A DNA stretch of 64,000 nucleotides, from NCBI GenBank assembly GCA_013115125.1, contig JABANN010000095.1, forward strand, positions 1 through 64,000, read 5' to 3'. Positions 3,171-47,790 of the stretch are shown here, one piece after another. Both the position numbers and the translations under genes were made by a program. The notes beneath the pieces were generated by a model that was not told the DNA's origin, did not search any database, and saw nothing but the letters and a program-made list of their open reading frames with translations. Origin of the DNA: Perkinsus olseni (taxonomy: Eukaryota). Positions within the stretch are counted from its first letter, which is position 1. Each line of letters starts with the position of its first letter.

Positions 3171-6100
3171 ATGTCTACTACCACTACTACCGTCACCACT
3201 ACTACGACCACTGTAAACCCTTCACACGACCCCAGGGTTTTAGTGCCACCCGGTCAGGAGGTAAGTTGGATTGTCTAGGACTTAGTGCCTCCTGCTAATT
3301 GCCTCTCAGGGCATCTTCTCGTGGACCACCCTGCTAGGTGTCCGTTGCGGGCCGCCGAACTCGGGCCTGAAACATGCCACGGGCCACAGCTACCATGCTG
3401 TGGACAATGGCCATATGGACCACGGCACTTCGACGCCATTATGTGAAGTGCTCACTTGGGACACCGTCCTCAGACATCTACTGGTACACCATCATACACC
3501 ATCCTTGCGCGTTGCTCATCATTACCACAGAAACAGCGGTCATTCATTACCCATCACGACCGTTGCAACCGGTTCTGATGGATTCTGCGTCTCGGTCGCC
3601 TTTACCCTTATTCCCCCTTCTCAGGATTCCCTAGGTCTTTACATCGTCATAGCGCTTGTGCTGGCTGGGTTGAATCTCCTATTGAAGTGGTGGGAGGCCA
3701 GGGCCGCTAGGAAGCGAGCGGGCCAAAAACTGAAGGTCAGCAGGCAAATAGCAATCCTTTCAAAAAACAGAGCCTCGCCGGAGGTGGCGAGCCTTGCATC
3801 ACCTCAGGAACCCCGTATCGCGCTGGACGACGGCGCCCCCTCATCGCGGGCCGCGTGGCATCGTGCTCAGAAGGTGGTCATTCGACAGCTGTTCAACTTC
3901 AACGGTTCGGTCGCCGTCAACTGGTGCATCCTGGGGCTGTCCACGCTGCAGTCCCTCACCTTCGGTTTGAGGTGGACTACCAGAAGAATCGACAACACCA
4001 CCATTTACCTTGAGTTCATCGCCAACTTCCTGGGCCTTGTCGACACCGCCGTGAAGCTCCTTCTCACCTGGCGTCACTGGTCTCAGTACGTCCGAGTCCT
4101 CGTCTGGCGGCTGCCCGTCGAAACGCTGTTGATCCGCTCCCTTGTCCTTCAAGGGAAGAGTTGGTGGTCCTTCTGCTTCGCCGCTAGCGCTAGAATGTCC
4201 CATGCGTGGCGCAACTTCACGCTCGTCTCCGACTACTGGCAACGGAAAGGGCAGAACTCCTTCAAACACGAAGTCCTTAACGTTATGGTTATCGTTTTCT
4301 GTTGGTTGTGGCTCGCCTCTAACACCATCCTCACAGTGGAGATTCTCGGCGACGCTGGCTTCCTCAAGGAGAGCTTCTCCTTGCCACAGCAAACTTCAAG
4401 CAACACTGATAGGAGAGTCTGGTCGCTCTTCCAAGCGATGTACTTCACTATTATCACAATCACAACGGTAGGCCTCGGTGACTTCAAGCCACAGAGCATC
4501 CTCGGTAGGCTGGTCGTTCCCTCCATCATCCTGGGAGGTATCGCAGCCTTCTCATTGACGACCACCAAGTTCCTGCTTCTTGTCCGCAACCAGCGTATTG
4601 GCCTTCGCCACTATCGAAGATACGGTTCCCGGCTGAACGTGCTGGTCACTGGCGACCCGGATCTGGATTCACTGCTCAACTTTATACTCGAATTTTTCCA
4701 TCCGGAAAAATTTGGAGTAAAATATGACATGATCGTTTTGGTGCCACATCGCCCAAGTGAGAGGGAAGCTTTGTCGTGAAGATACGCCTGGGTATCTTGA
4801 GCTCACTTTGGCACCCTGACGGTCAGAAAGATACCCCGATTTTTATACTTGTTGTTGCGATTTTTTATGGAGGAGATAAGCCCCTTTTTGGCGCTCAACT
4901 GGCAAGGTTTGTCGATATCACAGCTCGTGACGGACTTTGTGATTTGCATGCTTCGACCTTGGATACTTTAACAACGGACGATAGGTTCATAGGCGAGCTT
5001 CGGATACCCACGAGACATTCTGACTGGTAGAAATTCTAGTGAGTGGTGGACCTATGTCGCGCAGGATATTTTAGGATTCTACAGCAGAGTCAAAGATGCC
5101 CGATCAACAGAAAGACCGTCGTCTTTTCTTAGTTTCAGCGGACGGCGAGTCCTTCTTCTACAAGCTCCGTGAGCGTCTCACCAAGACGGAGATTGGGAGG
5201 TCCGCCATTGGCCAGCTGTGGTTCCACCATGGCACCATTATGAATGTGAGCGGCATGGGGGAGCTCGATAAACCAGTCCTGAAGGCCGGAATGGACTCTG
5301 GAAGCGCATTTTTCGTGTAAAAATGGATTCCAGAGTCGACTCTGGGTTTAAGGTTTGGTTTATTCAGCGAAGGGATGGTCTCCAATTTTTCGTTCTAATG
5401 CCGCCCGACAGCTGCTGCTGTCGGTTGTCGTTCATGGCGTAAACGCTCGTCGATGCCGAGAGCCTGTTCCTCGTCAGTCCCAAGACGTTCGTCTCATAAT
5501 TGGCCCCGATGCAGGAGGGGGCGGCGGCGTCGCCACGCAGCATCGACCGCAGTGTATATGGGTAACCACACTCGGCCCGCTGTTGTGAGTGTTGCGGTAC
5601 TCGATGATAGCCTCGTCAGAGACCAACTCTGTCTGCGCCCACTACACCGGAGTTGAGCCCTTCTAGCGTTTTTAGAAGCTTCGCCCACGTCTATAGCCCC
5701 CCGAGCCTCCAGTACTCTCCATAAGATAGATACTCCCGGATACGTCCTCGCGTGTCCCTGAAAGGGAAGATGCAGAGAACGCCTTGAGGGTCCTCGCCAC
5801 CAAACGCGCCGTTGAAAACTACACGGGTGTCAGAATAATAGCTTGCGCCCTCGGAAGTGCAGACCTTTTCATAGCGGCTGGTGAGGGGACTCAGGGCCCG
5901 CGAAGTGATTCTGCCATGGGCCGCACGGCGCTTCCGTTGCCTTCAGGACTTCGGCCGTGGGAAGTCCTTTGCCTCCACGAGTGGCGAGCAACTCTCTTGG
6001 GAGCCTCATGCCGCGTGCCTTGCTTTGGGACCTTCGTAAGTTTTCCGGATACCATCCTCGATTGAATGGCTCTCGTTGGGGCTCAGCAGTCAGTAGCTCT

Positions 6101-9100
6101 TCAGCGGTCCATCGAATGCATCAGCAAGAGCACGGGGTCCCCTATTACGGAACAGTTCCGAGGAGGTTCCGTGTATTTCGAAAGTAATTCAGCCAACCAG
6201 TCCGCGCTGAGGTGCTCAGCCGTTGGCACCGCCGTCACTTAGCATCAGTCCATCCATAGAGGGCAAGGCGCTCTCTCAAATCCCAAGCATGGATTTGGTG
6301 GCCTGTCCTTCCTGTTGAGACCATTCCAGAGGATGACCCGGCCATACCACTCCCCTGACAGGTGTCGAACCTAGTGTTCGCGGTAGAGGAGGACCCGGCA
6401 CTGGTCAGCGCCTTCAACTGGGAGGATAAGCTCATATCCATAGACGACCAGGTGGAAGCTGCCCCCGACAGCGTCGTACCTAGCATGCTCAGGAGCCCGA
6501 CGATGGAGACCCTCAGAAGAGCTGGAGGGCTGCATACGAGCACTCATTGGGCCATGAACTGTGAGCTACTGCGATGCTCGCCTTATCACTAGGCAATCCT
6601 AATAACGGCAATCCAAATGTCGCGCGCCACAAAATTCCGTCTCTCCCAAGGCCAGCTTCGACAGCGAAGACATCACCGTATCACCTCCTGTCTGATTGAG
6701 ACAGGTACGGTATTCGCTTGAGCTCTACTTACCGCGGATGGGCCTTCACTGACATCCTACATCAGAGCGCTTCCATCAGCGACTATCGAGTTACTCTCAT
6801 CGGAATAGTCGAGGTAACAACGCTCGTGGCGGTAGTCGTGTTTTACATTGTGTTTTAAGAAAAATTTCCAGCTCTGTTCGTGCAGAAATTGAACGGTTTG
6901 ATGGTGAAACTTTCAACGTTGGACGCAAGCGGAGCGAAGGATAAAACAACTTCCATCGGGCATCCTGGCGATGGCTCTTTTTCACGCCCGCTTTGTTCTT
7001 TCTGATCCTCGCCTTGCACCGCCATATTCACTCCCGTGATCGGCATCTTTGGTAATCTCTGCAGATTACTATGGTAGACGGTCAGAAGGAGCTGTCGGTG
7101 TATATCAATCCAGGCTCGCTCTATCGAGTACCCCACGACAAAGGGGTCGAGGTCGGGGGCCATCTGCCCGCCCGAATCACCCCCAAAGACTTTAGGTGGT
7201 CGGCGTCTTCATAGCGACCACCGCGGACGCCGTAGCGCAGCCAACCGGCCATCCCGACTTGTACGGCCGGACGCCAACCCCGGACGATGATGAATACAGT
7301 GAGAGATCACGAGGCGACCCTCCACTCCATCACAATCAGGCGACTCCTCCGCCACTGACTCCTACAGCGAGTGCTCGATCAGGCTGGACGGGAGTTTGGA
7401 TGACGATCGAAAGGTGCGTCCACCTGCCGCTGGTGCTCTGGCGTACCGTTTTGACAGGTCTTAGAAGACAGACCGCCAGAATGCGATTTCATAGAGCCCG
7501 AGAGGCTCCTCGAAATTTGGAAGGAGGGGGTCATTGAAGGCCGGAGACAGGTTGCTATGCGAGTGAGGCCCTCTGCGCCACCGCTCTGAGCTCAGCCGTA
7601 TGTTGGAAATATCATCCTCAATCTCTTCTGAAGTCAGCATAGCCATATCATTCTTTACACAACACAATTATCCTAGCTACAGAGACAGATGGTCTCAATA
7701 CCAGAGATGCCTCTAAATCACCGCAGTAGCACAAACGCTTAACGTATATCGGCTTCCCATCTTACCTCCGTACGAGATTCGACGATCACAACAGCTTGAA
7801 AGCAGCAGATAAGGGCGCCCTCTGATGACAGCTACAGTGGGCCTCGGCCATCGCCTCTCGTACCAGCTACTGATCACTATTCTCAAGCCGTTGAGGCCGA
7901 GGGAACATCATCCCAGGGCTTTGGTTCGTGCTGCTTGTCCTCGTTGGGCGCCTTTCGAGGTCCTCTCCAGTGGCGCCCTGCCGATAGACGACATCCATCA
8001 GCTCATGATGGACCCCCATGTTACCAAAAAATTAAAGTATCATTCTGTGACTACGGATACTACCAACACGATGGCTGCTGCAGGGCGGCGGTACGAGAGA
8101 GGATGAAGCTGGAAGAAACCAACAGAGAGGCGCACCTCAACCGAGGGGCTGCCAATAAAAGTGAATCGCTGGCCCCCGCGGATCACCGGTAGAAAGACGG
8201 TCTCGGCAGAGTCGACTCGAGCCTCGGTGACCGAGACCACCCTCCCTCCACCACTGAAGGCCCTCACCCATCCAAGTCCCGGGTAGTGCCTAGAAGTAGA
8301 TCACTACTCACCGTCGGTTCGGCTTTAGGTGTAAACAGCAAAGGTTCGTCCTACTGTGCTGTTGTGGAGAGCTGCCTGCTGTGGAGACGCTCCGTCACTT
8401 TGCGAGGACCTGTCGGATGCAGGTCGGCCGTCACAGACCTGTTCACCCGGTTTGACTAACCACAATCATCTGATACCGAATGCGAGGACGGAATCAAATT
8501 CTGACCCTCTCCCCTTTCCTTCCCCCTGTGGTTGAGGGTCATCCCAATGATTTTAGCGGGCTTCATCTAGCCCCAGCTGCTGTCGTCGATCGGGCATTCT
8601 CCATCACCAGGTGCTCATCCTCTCTCCATTGCCGCCCCCAACAGTCCAACTCCTAGGTCGGTTGGGGACAGCCATTGTGTCGTGGAGGGATGCATCGTCA
8701 TCAGGCGTTGGATCGGAAAGGACCGACACCCCCATCAGGGCCGAGAAGAAGGTCCCCTAGGGCGTTACCATTGGGGGCTCCGAAACACCGAACGCGATCA
8801 GGTCGATAAGAAAATTTGGTACCTTCAAGGCGACCCCCTGAAGGCCAGCCACCTTCGTCGGGCAGGATATCTTCGAGCCCGGGCGATCATGGTCAACAGC
8901 AACAAAGATACCATCCCGTCCTCTTCAGAATGTTTTCCAAACCCCAGGTCATCGGCGGTCTACAGTCGGCTGAGGGAGGCAGTGGCACCTCCGCTGACGT
9001 CAGACAGGTAGATCCCTGCAACCTCATGCCATGGGACCCGCATGCCAAGTCAGGTCTTCGCGGTGAGGCTCATCGAGCAGCTCCTTAACGTTGATCTGGC

Positions 9101-12100
9101 CGAGCGGACGGCTGGTGACCCGTTGGCCTTCCTGTCCGCCCGACGACCACCGGTCATTGCTGAGCTCTTCCACGAGAAGAGCCATCGGTGGGGGCTCCGG
9201 TCGAGTGGAGGGAACGAAGCTCGTTATCAGTCTCATTCCGATTCGACCCGACACGGCCACCGCTCCGCCTCCCTTCATCGATGAGATGACCGCCCCGCAC
9301 AATCGCGAAGTCTATCGCTGCGGCCGCTGGGCTGCTGGGAAAGTAACCCCCGGCTGGGGGCCTGCAGGAGGAGAGCCTCTGTAGGTGATGCTACCGAGTC
9401 GAGTGTGGACGGGGGTTCTCGTGGAAGCCTTTCGAAGTGAAAGCTTCATGTCGATCGTGGAGAGCCTCCTCAAGCACACTTCAAAGTAAGCGACCACTGG
9501 GAGCTGTTAGACTAATAATTCTAATTCATTTTGAATCGCGCTGGAGGTCGGTGGGTGTTAGGTAGGGACTAGCTGGAAAAGAATAACCCGGTCGCTTGTG
9601 GGCTCTTGACGCTTGCACCATCACGTTGTGCGGAATGTAGTACTTGAGAGTAGATCGGGCTCATAGTGAACGAGATGGAGCAGATAGGAAAGAGTTGGAA
9701 GAATGGGAGTTGATAATGCTAGTATGAGTACAGCCCGATTGTGTTATGTAGACAGTGCACGCCTGCGTAGTGAGGACCCCCCACCTCCGTTCTCCCCAAT
9801 CTAGCGGATTAGCACTCCCATTGTGTGGTCTCAGGATCGAGGCAGTTGATGTTTCCTGGATAACCAAACCCTACGGCCAGCTGCGGAGGCATTTCCTCAG
9901 TAGATGAAGGACGCGGTCGTCCACCAACCGATCGCTCCGAAATCAGGAACTTCTGGATCTCTGCCCGTTGCGATTATCCGCACCGTCGAGTACGTTCTAA
10001 CGCCGGAGGCTCGAGGAGACGACGATGACGACGGGTAGGCTGCTGCTGGCTCCCAGCTGCCCGACCGAGCTCTTGTCTGGCCCAGTCCCGAGGGAATGGC
10101 TGGAGTGACCATGTCCCACCCGATGCTGCTCACCAACCCACCCCATGAGTTGCCCCTCAGCAAGGGTGAGATCATCTCACAGCTTGACAGGCGGCCACCT
10201 CCTCACAGGAGATTCGGTCATAGTCCTGCAGGAGAATCGCCATCACTTCCCTGCTGCTCGACGAGATGAGTGCGAAACAGTACAGAAGCGGCCAATGAGT
10301 AGTCCTCTTCCCGATGCCCTGCAACCCTACTGGCGGTGACGATCAGAACGATACCAATCCATGCGCAGCGTCAGGCTGTCACGGTGGGTGCCCGGTGCTT
10401 CGAGAAGGGAGACGGAACCTCGCACAGAGGACAAGTGGGTGCTTCAATTGCTCATTATCCTCGGTGTTCCTTCGAAAAAGTTGTTACCTGTGCAGACCGG
10501 CAGACGACTCTCCGGTACCTGCGGGTCGTCTGGGCTTCCGTCGGAGTGCGCTGGCTGCCTTGGTCGTAGCGGCAGCTAAGAAGGGAGGGGACACCGAACA
10601 GGAACTGGTGAGCCGACCCTGATGAAAATCCGATGACGCCCTTGCCTCCTACGGGCTCTAACAATCATCCAAAGACTGTTCGTGGACGATCCGCATTGGA
10701 CAGACCAAAGGCCATGTCATTCCCTTAGTCTCGTCTCTCACCGATCGTTAACCCCTCCGGGTGAGAGCCATAACACCTGAAGACTCGTCAGTAAATCTTT
10801 GAGGGCGCACATACTCGACCATGCACCATGGGCCGTTCTCGTTGTTCCCAACGGAATCTTCTTACTGCGCAACACAGAGATCTTAGCTCCAACCCTGGCG
10901 GTGGTGGTGTTGCACTAACGCGTCCTACAGGAGACGGAGGAGGCGGAGTACCAGAAGGCCAAGGAGGAGCTGGTCGAGAGTGACAAGCAGCATCGCCGAG
11001 CATTCGGCAGCTTTTGGTCTCCAACCGGTCTTGAGGCGGGAAGTCGAAGAACCTCGATAATATCGGGGAGCAGGAGCTCCTCAGCGAACCCTGAGGTCCC
11101 TCACTCCGTACCATCTGCTGCCGAAGGTGGGACTCCACGTTGCCTGGCGATTGGGCTGCTCCTGCTGGCCAGGCCCCCGCCGCGAGTCCGTAGAGAGCCA
11201 CCAGACACAGGAGACAGTATCATCGTTCGGGTCTGTCTCGAGTGAGGGTACGTTGAGTGCGAAGGGTCGCTGAACCAGCCCAATTGAGAGTAACACAGTC
11301 TGTGTTACACAGACCCAGTCAGATCCATTGAGATACGTCAAATCACAAGTACTGATTACAGTAACTTATAGCTTCAAAATATGCGCTAAGATACTCGTGG
11401 GGAAGTTCGAGGCATCGCTGCTTCCGGTCACCTGGCCGAGTGCGAGTGTGATTGTCCGTTTTCCCTGTAGCTACTGCTACAGCCCAGCGGTCGTCATCAA
11501 GCAAGCAAGTGCGTATTGTCCCACACTGGGAGGAGGAGGAGGAGGCTGCGGTGGCCCCCAACCCAAGAAGACGGAGACGGAGCTCTCTGGCGGAAACCAT
11601 CATGCAGACAACGGAGATCTTGAAGGACTACGGCGCTCGTCGCGGGGTAGCCAGGCGCTGTGGTCAGCGTGATGGAGTGCTGTCTCGCCCTGTCAGTCAG
11701 CTGAGCCCGCTCCTCAAGGCCTCCTCAATACACTCGCGAAAAAGAGTTTGATCTCCGCGGGTGAGGAAGGGTCATGCCTCGGAAGCCATCGGCTCATCTG
11801 TTAGACGGAGGAGTCGTCCTGCCGGACATCGCCAGCTTGACCGGACACGGTTCAACACTGACTGGCGGCGGCGGCGAGTCGAGTGAGTTCATATCCTCGA
11901 TCCGTCACCCACTAGTTCAACCTAATGCAGGTTTCCGAGGCGAAGCACCGCCCACTGGTGAGTTGCCACGTTTTAACGATCCGCTCAGTCCGAGCAAGTT
12001 GAAAGGTCCCCATTGGCCGGAGCCCCCATCTACCGCTGACTCGACCGGGCGAAGGCGCATCAGCACGACGGTGGGGCAGGTGAACCCCATGGAGAAGTAC

Positions 12101-12172
12101 GGCTCCTTTCCGAGCTTTGAGACAGCCCAACCTCACCACCAGGTTCACCCGCCCGTCCTGAGCTTAGCATGA
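3171..12172 (+). CDS. BK/Slo-like (Ca2+-activated, RCK-domain) potassium channel, multi-exon
   Basis: TM helices and pore motif YFTIITITTVGLGDFKPQSILGR (~4441-4510). RCK-type exons follow: VLVTGD...NFILEFFHPE, EDAENALRVLA, VLCLHEWRATLLGASCRVPCFGTF|VSNL, KKIWYLQGDPLKASHLRRAG, YRCGRWAAG, PYGQL, LLTGDSVIVL. Many GT-AG introns. The 5' exon (MSTTTTT...) and the 3' end are inferred. Confidence 0.8.
9614..9754 (+). repeat. 141-bp intronic element, copy 1 (K+ channel intron)
   Basis: Matches the reverse complement of 41340-41480 with 7 mismatches and no indels. Confidence 0.9.
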
Positions 12173-37404: not shown

Positions 37405-40400
37405 TCATGCCTCCTCATCTCGTTCCGCCTTCACCTTCGTGATCAACTCCTGAACCTGTCCCCAATAGTCGGCCCATTCCGGTATAATTCGACGAGCCAT
37501 GTCCGTCTTGGGCTCCTTCGTCAGTGGATTCTGGCACAGGTCGATGGTCTTAGCAGTTTCCTTCGCCTCCTCGCCGCACCAGGTCTCGCACCACAACCAG
37601 TCGGCAGGCAGGGAGTGTATAGGGATCTGATGCTGGGCGTAATTAGGGAGATCCTGATCTAGGTTGGCCAGCGAGGCCGGGTCCTGCGAGAGCTGATTGT
37701 AGACAGCTCTGAGCGTGTCCCCAGCGCCCGTCTTTCTGAACTTCGCCAAGTCGACCACGAAGAGGGCCGAGATGTGATAAGGTCGGCCGGCCAAGTGGTT
37801 CTTCCAGTAGCCTTGTTTCCAAAACCTGAACCCTTCAGTGGATGGGTTCGTGTCGCCCATCGGCGTGAAGCCGTAGACCTTGCCGCCCAAGTCCATGTCC
37901 CACAGCTCCCTCACGTCAGCCCTGACCACCTGGTCAGCGTCGATGAAGATGATACGATCGACGCTCGGCGGGAAAATAACGTCCAAAAATAAGATCTTGT
38001 AGGCCCAGATCAGCCGCTGCTTCTCCGACTGAGGATTCAACCAGCTCGGCCACTTGTACGTCACAAAGCGGTACTCGAAGTCGTACTCGTCCGCCAGCCG
38101 CGGAATGAACTCCCTGAACTGGGGCGAAAGGAACTGGTCAATAAACCAGAAACACAGCCGGCTGGTCGTGTGGTTCCGCACAGAGAGAACCATTATAGCC
38201 AGCAGTTGCTCATACAGGTGACCCGAGGCGACCGTGAAAATGTGGATCGGCCCGTCATCGCTCTTGTCGTCCTCTTGCTGCTCATAAATCAGCTCACGGG
38301 CCTTGCCAGGTCTCAACCTCAGCTTCACCGGGTAGGCGGGCATAAGAAATTTATTGACATGAACGACGTTGGCGCCCATCGCCTCATAGACGCTCTCTCC
38401 CACAGTGTTGGGCTTCAGTCTGATATCGTACCGTCCTGGGTTGGCATAAAGTTGATAGTAGCCGAGATTGCGCATGACCCAGGTCTCGGCTAGGGGCTGG
38501 TCCTGGGCCACGAGCTGAAGCTGGGCGCCGTCCGCTGGTCCTCGCGGATGACCATTCTCGTCGACGTCGTACGACTGCCCTTCAATGTACAGCTGCTTCA
38601 AGACGTACCTGACGAAGGGAACACCGTCACGCGCCACGAAATTAACAGGGATCGGCCTACTGCGCTTCGACCCTTTCCGGATCGACCGGAGTGAGTCTGA
38701 TGTTGTCCATGTCCGCCTCTCCTCGCAAGCTGCTAACCTGCCAGTTGGGCAGGACCTCTAGGCCCAGAGTGAGAGTGTTCCTCGTCGGCGTGAGATTGAA
38801 CTCAGCCCAAGCAGCGGCCGCCTCCTCAGCAACACCCGTCGCCATCACCGTTCGATGCCAGCCCTTCAGTGGGTACTCCGAGTACTTCTCCTGCGGGGCC
38901 AGAACCAGGCGAGCGCCGAAGCCGTCCAGGGCAGCGGACATGTGGCTGATGGTCGACAGGGCGCTTCTGCCAGCATCAGTGAGAGGGTCAACACTCGCAA
39001 CGATCTCAGCAATCATATGACCGCGCGCCGCTAAATTGAAGCCGGCGAGAGGTGCCTTCTCAAAGGCTTTCTCGAGGCCTTCCTCCATCATCTCCCTGTG
39101 AGGGTTCTCCGAGGCAGCCACCGTCTGCATCAGGCTTAACGCCACAGTACAGGCCAGGGAGTCCAACCCGCCGCACTCGACCTGCTGAGCGGTCTGTCTG
39201 ACAGCGAACGGGGCCAGAAGGGAATCTAGCAGGTCGTCCAGGATGGGCTTAGCTTCGGCGACGTCGAGTTCGGTCCTCCGACCGTTCATGACCAGGACGA
39301 CGCCTCGGCTGTTCTCGGCACGAGCGGACCGTGCCAAGCGGGCAGCCGCCTCTTCAACGTCGGGGCCCACTGCGGACATCTTGCTACACTTGCTATTCTT
39401 GAAGTTCCTCAACGCCTCTAAAGTATGAGCACAGCCAAGCAGCCTGGCATTGACTTCAGGGTTAGTGGCAATCACCGTGAAAATCGTGCCCGGTCGTCCC
39501 TCCAGCACTTCCGCCATCCTCTTCACAATCACGAGCTTTTCTTCCAACTCCTCCAAGCCACCACCAACGGCCACGAGAACGTGCAGTGGCGCCGCTGGGC
39601 CCTCCGAGGTCGTCGGAGCTTCGAGATTCGTCACGCGCCTCAAAGCTTCGATGGGAAGACGGACGAGGTCAGCCAGGTCATCGTCGAAGAGCGCCGGATG
39701 ATAGACAGAAGACAGAAAGTCCACGCTCTTTTCCGGAAAAATGAGTTCTCTGATGACATCAGTGACCTCGCCATCATCATCTTCCTCAGAATCCCAGTCG
39801 ACCTCCTCCTCGCCCTTGTTCTCCTTTTTCTGCTTTTCAACCAGCTTTGTATACCAGGCTGTCCCCAAGGCCCCAAAGTCCTCATTAATGAACAGCGCCA
39901 TATCGCCAAGGTCGCCGCTGACTCTGCCGTTAACAACCACGCTGGGGAAAGGCAGTCCCTTGGCGGCCGCCCAGGCCTGACCCTTCTTGACGACCTGCGA
40001 GACCTCCCCTCCACTCGGTGGCAAGGCCTCCAGCAGAACGTCCTCGCAGACACGCTCGATCGCGTCCACTGACAGAACTTCGTCTTCCTCAGAGTTGGCC
40101 GCCCTCACCAACGCTTGGAGGAACTGCCGTACTTTTTTCAGCTCTTTTTTTCGACCGCTACCGTAGAGCTCACTGAAGCACTCAGCCGCCCTTGCCCCTG
40201 CCTGAGTGGCCGTGCTCGGCACGAGGGCAATCCTAGCCGGAAACGGCTGAACTAAGAGCTTACCAACCGTCTCAAGAACCTGCTGACGGTCAGCCAGGTC
40301 GATCAAAAAGATAATGTCAAAAACGACTCGTCTTAGCGGAGCGATGCCCCTCTGGCCCATCATCATCATCTGCACTAACACGTCCAATTCCTCCGACCAC

Positions 40401-41945
40401 CTGCTGGCCTGCGGGTCCCTGAGCACGTTATAGACGTAGACCGGGCCCACTCCCCCGTCTCCCTTCCACTCCATGCGACTCGCCATCGGCAACCTAGTGG
40501 CGTTCCGAACCATTCGGGCGGCCTCGGACTCCTCCAGGCCAAGACCAGCGAGCTCCTCCACAGCCAAATAAATGGGAAGCAGCTTGTCGATGAGGGGGTG
40601 CAGAGTGACCATCTTCTCGTCGATCACGTCGCCCGAACCCAGCACGTACACCGACCCGCTCTGCGTTAACCCCTGGGCGACCTCGGATACCTGCTCCTCC
40701 ACGCCCTTGGCCACCGTCGCCTGGCTCAACTCCACCACCCTGGCCGGGAAGTCCTCGAGCATCTTCACCATCCGAGGAAGATCTCCTCGGGCAGCCTCCA
40801 AAAGCTGGGCTCCGATGGAAGTCAGCTCCCACGCTTTCAGCTTGCGATCTGCCGAGCTCAAAATTTTTTCCGATTTCAGATTTGCCTTCGCCCTCGTGAA
40901 GTCAACCTCGGGGAATCTTTCCTGCAACCTGGTCCAACACACGCCAACCTCACCACAGCCAGTTCCCTGGTGAGCTGAGCCAGCCGCTTCCACATCCTCG
41001 CCCTCATCAGCTGAGGCCTTGTACTCAGAGTTCTTGATCGTCAGCCCAGCGCCGTAGCCCGAGATGAGCTCCCTAGGTTGAACCGTGAAGTCGCCCGGTC
41101 CATCGCCATGGCGAAATACGACACGGCAATCGATGCAGCATCCGGTCGTCAAGCTTCTGAGGGCGGCTGTTGTAGTAAGGCTCTTGGCTTCTCCGTAAAC
41201 CAGAACTGTCGTCCCTAAAGAAAAGCGACTTCGCCGGGAATCGAACCTTCGCGAGAATTGGTGATGACGCCTAACAACGCAGTAGACCGAGAAAAGCCTC
41301 GACGATGGCCGCTAAGAAAGCCCCGCAGTGCCTACGCGTTGTCTACATAACACAATCGGGCTGTACTCATACTAGCATTATCAATTCCCATTCTTCCAAC
41401 TATTTCCTATCTGCTCTATCTCGTTCACTATGAGCCCGATCTACTCTTAACTACTACATTCCCCACAACGTAATGGTGCACCTACCTCCAGCAGCTCCCT
41501 CCTGTACCTCAACACCGAAGTCCTCAGTACTGCTATTGCCAGCCTTAGTGACCACGCAGACGCCCTTGGAAAGACACCCTTCCTTCAGACCCTCACCAGC
41601 CACCTCCACCACGACCAAGGCTTCCTCTTGGCACCCTCGACCGACTACCCGAGCGAACGATCGATGGTACTCCACCATCGGCGAGAAGTACTTGTTCAGA
41701 ACGGTAAACTTCATCAGGGATTTAACGCTTCGAGTGGTCAACAAAGATTCCGCCGTCTTATCACTTAAAAGATACTGTCGGGCCTGGTCGCCACTCAGAT
41801 GGGATAAGAACTCGAGCTCTTGAGAAGCCGGCGCCACTGCAGGCCAGGGCGACTGCAACGACACCGACACTGTGTGGGCGCTTGACAGATGTGCGCAGTG
41901 GTAGAACAGCGTCAAGAACGACGAGAGGACGATGAGCATGCTCAT
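37405..41945 (-). CDS. UGGT: UDP-glucose:glycoprotein glucosyltransferase (GT24), 3 exons
   Basis: Signal peptide and VSVSLQSPW; SGYGAGLTIKNSEYKA; VMRNLGYYQLYANPG; IHIFTVASGHLYE; YKWPSWL...EKQRLIWAYKILFLDVIFP; FIDADQVVRAD; LANLDQDLPN; WLWCETWC; KTIDLCQNPLTKEPK. Introns at 41215-41485 and ~38609-38660. Confidence 0.95.
41226..41298 (-). other. tRNA-like element at the 3' end of UGGT intron 1
   Basis: GGCTTTTCTCGGTCTACTG...GAAGGTTCGATTCCCGGCGAAGTC: B-box GGTTCGATTCC and acceptor-like stem GGCTTT/GAAGTC, then GCTTTTCTTTAG (3' splice site). Confidence 0.5.
41340..41480 (-). repeat. 141-bp intronic element, copy 2 (UGGT intron 1)
   Basis: 95% identical to 9614-9754; begins 5 nt after the start of the intron (GTAGG|TGCACC). 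Confidence 0.9.
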
Positions 41946-46125: not shown

Positions 46126-47790
46126 CTATTTCTTAGCAACAGCTTGGCCGCCTGACGTTCCCAAGCCCATCATGGTCTTCCAAGCATCGTAGATGTACCA
46201 CTGAAGGCCAGTCAAAGTACCGATCATGATGATACGGGTACCTGGCCAAACAACACAATGACTGCGATGAATGGAACGTATCATAGGTCCAAGCTGGGAA
46301 GATACAGAAAAGCTCGACCTTTTTCGTTTCGATCTGCGCAAAGAATTGTCACGTCACCCCAGGCTACCCAGTCCCTTCATAAAGAGATTCTTCAAGCCTT
46401 GCTCGGACGCCATCTGACCGAAGCTCTTCCCTTGGTTCCCAACCTTGCCTGCCAACACACGACCTATCCTCACCAACTCCCTCCCCCTCCCTACCCATCT
46501 GAGACACAAGGTTGTCCGCCGGCTGGGACACGATGGCACAGAAAACACCGGCGATGTAACCCGAGGCGAAGGTGATGCCGAGCTGTGTGCCCTTAGAGTA
46601 AGAGTCTCTAGGGTTCGTGAAAACGTGTCTGTAGAACTTCTCAACACAGTACTCGAACCCGACGAACTTGGCGACTGTGTACCTGACATCCACCGCTGCC
46701 TGGCAGGAACGGGACGTTAGCGACTCCTCGAGAGAGACGACACCGAGAGAGGATACTGCTTTCCGCGCTACCCCACACTGGGTGGCGGAGCCGGTCGCGC
46801 GCACGGAGGAAGAAAAAAGACGATTGGAAAAGAGAATCTTGATACTACGATGGTAACTCATAGGTTAACCTATCGCCTAAAGATACCCCTGATAACAAAG
46901 AATGAAGACTTACGGTATCTGTCTCGACCACAGCGGCACAACACTTCCGAAGGGGAATCTCGTCTCCGCCCTAGTAGCGTTCATTTGCTGCAGTGCCGCG
47001 CCAAAACTGGTCGGGAAAGTGCCCGGTGGGGACGTCTGGACCTTCACTTTCACCATCTCCATTGGGCACAGAGCGATGTCGGCGAAGAACTCGGCCGAAG
47101 CGCTGGCACCCGCCCACACGAAAGCTCGGTACCTACGAGAGGGCTGTACCGAGGACAGCGGAGAAAGGAGAGATTTACGCCAGGGGCCACACTGTGGAAC
47201 GACGGGGTAGCAGAAATCAACCCTACACAGGCATCCCAACAATTTATGATACTTTCACATGTATAATAGATAATTATCGCAACAGCAGCCGTCCTCATCC
47301 GAGCTCACTTGGTAGCGTTCTGTTCTCCGAGCATGTTGGCGTAGAGATCCTTGAAGACCTCATTCAGGCCGAACTTGAACATGCCCTGGAAGTGGTACCC
47401 AATACAAGTAGGCTCCCAACCCTTGATCAGCATCCTGGCACCTGATCACAAAAATCGCAATAAAAACACGCTTCGCTCCGCCAGAGACTCTCCACCGCGA
47501 CTCACCTTCCTCCGCTGCGATGGTGCGAACACCAGAGATCAGGCTACGATACTTGGAAGGATTAACCTGAGGCCCTCGAAAGTTGGGAAAAAGTTGGTAT
47601 GAACCCTGCACGCATGCGCAAGACTCACCTGCATGTTGCACTTGACCACATCAAGAGGAGTAACGGCAGTGTGGGTGAGTCCGCAGGCCAGGGCCCCTCC
47701 AGCCAGGCACTTGGCATAGTAAGAGTTGGTATGGGGTATTGCGGGGTTGGCAAAACGAGCATCCCAACCCTTCTGAGCGGCAGCTGGCAT
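46126..47790 (-). CDS. Mitochondrial phosphate carrier (SLC25A3/Mir1/Pic2 family), multi-exon
   Basis: YYAKCLAGGALACGLTHTAVTPLDVVKCNMQ; GYHFQGMFKFG; SASAEFFADIALCPMEMVKVKVQT; PLWSRQIP|YTVAKF; AGVFCAIVSQPADNLVS; RIIMIGTLTGLQWYIYD. Confidence 0.95.

Follow-up and report, generated by a model that had tools for sequence, protein, structure and literature searches.

A small non-coding element, very probably transposable, in introns of two Perkinsus olseni genes

Two host introns and a shared repeat

The stretch of Perkinsus olseni DNA analyzed here (64,000 nucleotides of GenBank assembly GCA_013115125.1, contig JABANN010000095.1, positions 1 to 64,000; "the window") carries, on opposite strands, a gene for a potassium channel and the gene for UDP-glucose:glycoprotein glucosyltransferase (UGGT). 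Each of these genes holds, in one of its introns, a copy of the same short non-coding repeat. This repeat is very probably a small transposable element, and we describe its boundaries, its host introns, its wider family and the effect that its insertion appears to have had on a splice donor.

The channel gene (3171-12169, plus strand) contains the first copy, copy A. Its open reading frame (ORF) matches the P. olseni 'calcium-activated potassium channel subunit alpha-1', and Pfam identified Ion_trans_2 and a Slo-like RCK domain on the exons neighbouring the intron in question. The annotated channel protein (P0005) could be threaded exactly onto the plus strand, with 1588 of 1588 residues placed on 38 exons separated by 37 GT..AG introns, and introns make up about 47% of the gene span. 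Intron lengths in this gene are two-peaked, 26 of the 37 falling at 41-72 nt and 11 at 141-397 nt; the long ones might hold further insertions. The second copy, copy B, lies beside a long ORF that is 100% identical to P. olseni UGGT and in which Pfam identified Glyco_transf_24 and thioredoxin-like domains. Here the protein threads from exon 1 into exon 2 over 435 residues, up to a single amino-acid difference. A minus-strand joint of 41214 to 41486, skipping 271 nt bounded by GT..AG, was present in 1 contig each of two public RNA-type sequencing runs (X10 and X15) and in none of two DNA-type runs (X1 and X2); UGGT intron 1 is spliced out, the element included. A sequence-only reading of the window had placed both copies in the sense orientation in introns of their host genes, and this was borne out by the threading of both proteins and, for UGGT, by the RNA contigs as well. 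The same reading was correct in starting copy B 5 nt into UGGT intron 1, counted from the donor GT. A further 121 nt of intron follow copy B, while copy A has 128 nt of unrelated intron before it and 76 nt after it.

Two observations on the UGGT gene may be added. The translation of exon 2 (38660-41214, minus strand) is 99.88% identical to the annotated UGGT protein P0003 over 852 aligned residues, and the window may represent a different haplotype or isolate from that record; for the channel protein the match is exact. Within UGGT intron 1, in its single-copy portion 3' of the element, the minus strand reads GGTTCGATTCC at 41237-41247, which we take to resemble a tRNA T-arm or an RNA polymerase III B box; ARAGORN finds no tRNA there.

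The two copies, A at 9614-9754 (plus strand) and B at 41340-41480 (minus strand), are 31.6 kb apart. They had been described as a 141-nt repeat with 7 differences and no indels, and pairwise alignment agreed: there are 7 mismatches over 141 nt, 4 of which are transitions, and 0 indels. Alignment of A and B on the same strand fails, the copies being inverted relative to each other on the plus strand. On both sides the similarity collapses abruptly and the flanks are unrelated. No third copy was found within the 64-kb window by blastn at word size 7 or by nhmmer with --max. The element was said to contain no ORF, and stop codons do occur in all three sense frames of both copies, with at least one in every antisense frame. 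The short motifs pointed out earlier are likewise all present in the sequence.

The 3' boundary proved to be different from the one first drawn. Identity had been taken to stop right after a terminal ACA. The next 4 nt are GTGC in copy A and ACGC in copy B, and other members of the family go on with GTGCA; because the family continues in this way, the ACA is not the end of the unit. The flanks of both copies were compared at every 3' extension from 0 to 11 nt. At an extension of 4 nt, 5-bp direct repeats appeared at both copies, GTAGG/GTAGG at copy B (5/5 matches) and ACGCT/ACGCC at copy A (4/5). Such a pair of repeats, at any shared offset from 0 to 11, arose in only 0.0425% of 200000 random draws from the window. 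Thus, once the 3' end is moved 4 nt outward, both copies are flanked by target-site duplications (TSDs), which the sequence-only reading had reported as absent. An alternative delimitation of copy A gives a unit of 146 nt, TGCAC...GTGCA, with a 4-bp TSD. Copy A and the family consensus have TG...CA termini (TGCAC...GTGCA); copy B ends in ...ACGCG. Compared as inverted termini, the first 5 nt match in copy A, with 7/12 matches overall, and copy B has 3/12. Coordinates of the features are collected in Table 1.

Table 1. Positions of the two element copies, their flanking duplications, internal features and host introns in the window
Feature	Position	Strand	Basis
Intron 26 of 37 of the Slo/BK-type Ca-activated K+ channel gene, 349 nt, GTAAGC...CTCAG	9486..9834	+	exact threading of P0005; Pfam
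Upstream TSD of copy A, ACGCT	9609..9613	+	4/5 match to 9759-9763
Element copy A, 145-nt unit (141 nt + GTGC)	9614..9758	+	pairwise alignments; TSD comparison; family 3' end GTGCA in loose-end consensus
Family core in copy A, sense positions 36-141, the only part common to many other genomic copies	9649..9754	+	contig loose ends at 41445 and 41340; depth table
5' arm ATCGGGCTCATA of interrupted inverted repeat in the core	9654..9665	+	pairing compared with shuffles; identical in both copies
3' arm TATGAG..AGCCCGAT of interrupted inverted repeat in the core	9723..9739	+	pairing compared with shuffles
Downstream TSD of copy A, ACGCC	9759..9763	+	flank comparison
UGGT intron 1, 271 nt, GTAGGT...TTTAG, GT..AG	41215..41485	-	threading and spliced RNA contigs
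Downstream TSD of copy B, GTAGG, probable former donor (GTAGGC), now at intron +151	41331..41335	-	5/5 match; residual intron start GTAGGCACTG
Element copy B, 145-nt unit, 3' end ACGC instead of GTGC	41336..41480	-	pairwise alignments; TSD comparison
Upstream TSD of copy B, GTAGG, the splice donor in use today	41481..41485	-	flank comparison; RNA contigs; threading

The family in public sequencing runs

Contigs of the DNA-type runs X1 and X2 and of the RNA-type runs X10 and X15 (the last RNA by its record) were placed on the 1001-nt stretch 40900-41900, which contains copy B. In all, 67, 53, 22 and 3 contigs, respectively, were placed. The X1 contigs range widely in identity, with 14 at 99% or above, 13 at 95-99%, 29 at 90-95% and 11 below 90%. 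Summed depth in the element bins of X1 was 3060, 1634 and 18828, compared with 75-78 in the flanks; in X2 it was 7981, 2183 and 16315, compared with 133-149. As sums over contigs these depths are not copy numbers, and we read them only as a family of tens to a few hundred copy-equivalents.

The places at which contigs leave the reference define the family's extent. At 41340, 8, 7, 6 and 1 contigs of the four runs have loose ends, and beyond a shared TGCAC their flanks agree at only 0.53-0.6. This edge is a true edge of the family, about 5 nt outside the ACA, and the GTGCA 3' end is found in the family consensus of all 4 runs. A second set of loose ends lies at 41445 (14, 17 and 7 contigs), where the contigs depart into a different sequence that is common to them (agreement 0.77). 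Because they leave the reference here, most relatives share only a 105-nt core (41340-41445). The depth at 41448 equals exactly two single-copy contigs (155.6 in X1 and 295.6 in X2), one of them with the copy A variant, and the 5' 35 nt are therefore confined to copies A and B.

The middle of the element appears to vary in length within the family. In X1 and X2, 1 DNA contig each lacks 39 nt of the middle, which is pyrimidine-rich on the plus strand (41364-41404), and many small indels are clustered at 41376-41407. A 36-aa piece of the element, compared with 1.84 billion representative proteins, gave 2 matches at E<=0.001, which were rejected as spurious: both are unnamed, highly repetitive proteins in which an identity of 33-38% is summed over many repeats. 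Among the matches listed, the Perkinsus literature on introners, transposable elements, retrotransposons and miniature inverted elements yielded no description of this family, which so far appears to be undescribed.

Insertion into existing introns and the alternatives

The age of the two introns relative to the insertions was examined by removing the element and one copy of the TSD in silico. The residual introns are 121 nt in UGGT, starting with GTAGGCACTG, and 199 nt in the channel gene. Both lengths are 1 mod 3 and both residues contain in-frame stops; neither site, therefore, was continuous coding sequence, and the introns came first. Protein alignments to the P. chesapeaki orthologues are interrupted at these intron positions (residues 945|946 at 9486; 149/155 at 41490/41212), which suggests that these are older introns shared by the two species.

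We consider it very probable that both copies are a small (145-146 nt), non-coding and non-autonomous transposable element of P. olseni, carried as a passenger in pre-existing introns. The enzyme type, the order of events and the element subtype in the following account are what we infer. The inserting enzyme would have made a staggered cut of 5 bp (possibly 4 bp), as an LTR-retrotransposon (long terminal repeat) integrase or a DDE transposase does, and the direct repeats flanking each copy would be due to that cut. Both insertions would have landed in existing introns, to be removed with them as passive passengers. Copies A and B, about 5-6% diverged, would form a two-member subfamily of the abundant core family, one being the source of the other or both stemming from a lost master copy.

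In UGGT the insertion appears to have fallen on the splice donor itself. Intron 1 begins with the five bases of copy B's TSD. The original donor would have been G|GTAGGC, and the element would have entered by a 5-bp staggered cut across GTAGG. The duplication would then have created a second donor on the upstream side of the element, now GTAGGT, which is the donor spliced in RNA, leaving the former one idle at intron +151. The intron would in this way have grown from 121 to 271 nt with the gene still working. Were the present intron retained, translation would reach a stop after 9 further codons. No joint representing splicing at the downstream GTAGGC or at the CAG of the element was present in the RNA contigs, which drop rare variants. 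No DNA contig joins 41486 to 41335, as an empty-site allele would; such contigs also drop rare variants, and this result is neutral either way.

As to the subtype, the sequence-only reading had proposed a young mobile element, either a miniature inverted-repeat transposable element (MITE) or a mini solo LTR. The mobile element stands, on the TSDs and on dozens of matching contigs; between the two types we only lean, slightly favouring the solo-LTR-like one. The features that define solo LTRs, terminal-repeat retrotransposons in miniature (TRIMs) and MITEs are general knowledge. Identification as a solo LTR or a TRIM-like terminal repeat is tentative. Copy A and the family consensus share with these the TG...CA ends with few inverted bases, and the element as a whole shares the absence of an ORF, many copies, a conserved 3' part with a variable 5' part, and a 5-bp TSD, which falls within the 4-6 bp of solo LTRs. 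In full-length relatives of such a repeat, two copies would enclose a primer-binding site, a polypurine tract and, in autonomous ones, gag-pol; the window contains no further copy. It is also possible, if somewhat doubtful, that the element is a MITE with very short terminal inverted repeats (TIRs). In size, lack of coding capacity, abundance and presence in introns of a gene-dense genome it resembles a MITE, as it does in its TSD, which has the same length of 5 bp in both copies. We know of no transposase-bearing relative. A short interspersed element was rejected: ARAGORN found 0 tRNA genes around either copy, there is no Rfam match, and an A-rich or simple-repeat tail is lacking.

Several points weigh against interpretation as a transposable element of either type. 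An LTR of only 146 nt would be very short, and copy B lacks the terminal CA; for a MITE it is the TIR that is very short, at 5 nt (in copy A only) instead of about 10 or more. The terminus of copy B, ACGC(G), has 2-3 changes in its last 5 nt compared with about 5% elsewhere. The insertion model depends on two TSD pairs, one with a mismatch, and the conservation of the introns in P. chesapeaki on protein alignments. The family's abundance is read from depths that are sums over contigs, and X1 and X2 may be the source of this assembly, hence not an independent confirmation. Two 24-nt core patterns gave 0 and 0 matches in metagenome contigs, and one core pattern gave 0 matches in contigs of prokaryote genomes. 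Finally, a 40-aa antisense open piece matched no longer protein at E<=10 among 27 candidates.

A different origin of the pair, in which segmental duplication or gene conversion, not transposition, carried part of one intron over to the other, is very improbable. It would account for the restriction of the full 141-nt unit to this one inverted pair, 31.6 kb apart. However, each copy has its own, different 5-bp direct repeat, which is not a product of conversion or duplication, and the 105-nt core is common to dozens of other contigs with unrelated flanks.

The element had also been called introner-like. Introners are transposable elements that generate introns on insertion, with splice sites that are borne by the element or recruited from the TSD (available parts of PMC9860276 and PMC12130899). 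Applied here, this would mean that the element itself created both introns by inserting into exons and supplied or recruited their splice sites. Copy B does show half of the arrangement known from Symbiodinium, in that a short TSD supplies the 5' splice site, and at the end of the element a pyrimidine-rich stretch leads into TAG and CAG, a possible acceptor. Amoebophrya, Symbiodinium and Polarella, which are related lineages, are rich in introners, according to the portions of PMC7789003, PMC9860276 and PMC12130899 available. Against this, splicing of copy B's intron in RNA uses an acceptor 121 nt past the element, and copy A is separated from its donor by 128 nt and from its acceptor by 76 nt. 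What is left after the in silico removal, 121 and 199 nt, shifts the frame and contains stops, so that both sites were already introns. Nor do the surveys, as far as their available tables go, record introners in this genus: Dataset S1 of PMC12130899 gives 0 introner families in its 4 P. olseni, 2 P. marinus and 1 P. chesapeaki rows, and the supplementary information of PMC9860276 has 1.0/0.0/0/0 for Perkinsus_olseni compared with 1.0/1.0/1/0 in Symbiodinium rows, the columns being taken without headings. Neither copy makes up its intron and the removal of neither restores coding sequence; flanked by unrelated intron, with residues that cannot be read as coding, these two copies are ruled out as introners, and we give that origin almost no credence.

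The remaining proposal, that the repeat is an intron-encoded structured RNA gene, such as an H/ACA-like small nucleolar RNA (snoRNA), that was duplicated or mobilised, fared no better and is most improbable. It took support from the sense orientation in two introns, from the ACA near the 3' end and from an ATAGGA after a possible 5' hairpin. With H/ACA snoRNAs the element does share a sense position in an intron, a length of about 140 nt and the ACA near its 3' end; it differs in having no supported hairpin-hinge-hairpin, no Rfam match and a 5' hairpin arm that is unconserved in the family. Searches of Rfam found nothing with E<=10 around copy A, and over the whole window nothing reached gathering score. 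Minimum free energy z-scores against shuffles were 0.06, -0.30 and 0.43, so that the element folds no better than shuffled sequence. The 5' stem that had been offered as evidence of structure forms 12/14 pairs in copy A and 11/14 in copy B, and an equal or better stem was reached in 210/300 shuffles. In copy B a G-to-A change at position 64 breaks one of its pairs with no compensation, and its 5' arm lies within the 35 nt absent from other family members. The second pairing, ATCGGGCT/AGCCCGAT with CTCATA/TATGAG, is identical in both copies and for that reason cannot show covariation. As an interrupted inverted repeat of 8+4 non-overlapping pairs in the core, this pairing is non-random (reached by 3/500 shuffles) and could speak for a structured RNA; we take it to be a feature of the element DNA, perhaps what remains of inner inverted repeats. 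Past the ACA, moreover, the unit, and with it the TSDs, runs on for another 4 nt.

Abundant RNA contigs bearing the element in X10 also appeared to favour an RNA gene, with depths of 2557-2917 compared with 113 for UGGT exons. This RNA excess of 22- to 26-fold is, however, no larger than the DNA excess of 22- to 250-fold; there is no excess per copy, and therefore no dedicated RNA gene is needed. A discrete H/ACA snoRNA would carry its ACA 3 nt from the 3' end, and ends of RNAs are beyond what contigs can show.

The orientation shared by the two copies may have a basis in composition. The sense strand is 62% purine overall and 78% over positions 60-105. Reversed, the element would bring into the intron a long run of pyrimidines with AG dinucleotides after it, likely a cryptic acceptor, and selection could favour the sense orientation observed (n=2 copies).

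Elsewhere in the window, direct repeats, three to four in number, each about 81-100 nt long and 60-91% identical, occupy 24457-24966, with a weak fourth match at 46277-46319; they were unreported by Tandem Repeats Finder. A perfect (TCA)17 microsatellite is located at 27389-27439. The channel gene is directly followed, on the opposite strand, by a 402-aa open frame (12725-13933, minus strand) with an S1/P1 nuclease domain (E 7e-17).

Significance and comparison with known introners

Short transposable elements in introns are common, and the finding is in itself an ordinary one. The family appears to be abundant in a clam parasite that is relevant to shellfish farming and is worth masking and annotating in Perkinsus genomes. 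In the UGGT copy we would have a clean natural case of an element that inserted onto a splice donor and was tolerated because the TSD rebuilt that donor. TSD-using introners recruit their 5' splice site by just such an elementary step, which would here be seen in a lineage sister to the introner-rich dinoflagellates, one in which the surveys, in their available parts, report no introners. It is conceivable, if improbable, that the family as a whole is a Perkinsus introner family missed by the surveys, some copies having inserted into exons at targets starting with GT and being spliced from the TSD donor to the TAG or CAG at the element's 3' end. If this is true, the UGGT copy would be a snapshot of the mechanism by which a TSD becomes the donor, and Perkinsozoa, like dinoflagellates, would be a lineage in which transposons still drive intron gain.

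The published systems nearest to the Perkinsus element are known to us from parts of the respective papers, and the comparison is limited to these. Solo LTRs can also generate introns (PMC12130899). The introner elements of Amoebophrya (Farhat et al. 2021, PMC7789003) likewise belong to a parasite of a sister lineage and have direct repeats of 3-5 nt at their borders as well as inverted repeats. There, however, the direct repeats overlap the exon/intron boundaries, inverted repeats of 8-20 nt join the intron ends, and the splice sites are often non-canonical, whereas the host introns described here are GT..AG and reach beyond the element. The introners of Symbiodinium microadriaticum (Gozashti et al. 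2022, PMC9860276) are, like the Perkinsus element, short and non-coding, and are found in a myzozoan alveolate. Symbiodinium introners have TIRs and 4-bp TSDs and form the whole intron, the 3' splice site being part of the element and the 5' one coming from the TSD; here the acceptor is located 121 nt outside the element. The Perkinsus element has in common with them inverted termini, in copy A, and a short TSD, of 4-5 bp, and copy B alone shares with them a splice donor that comes from the TSD.

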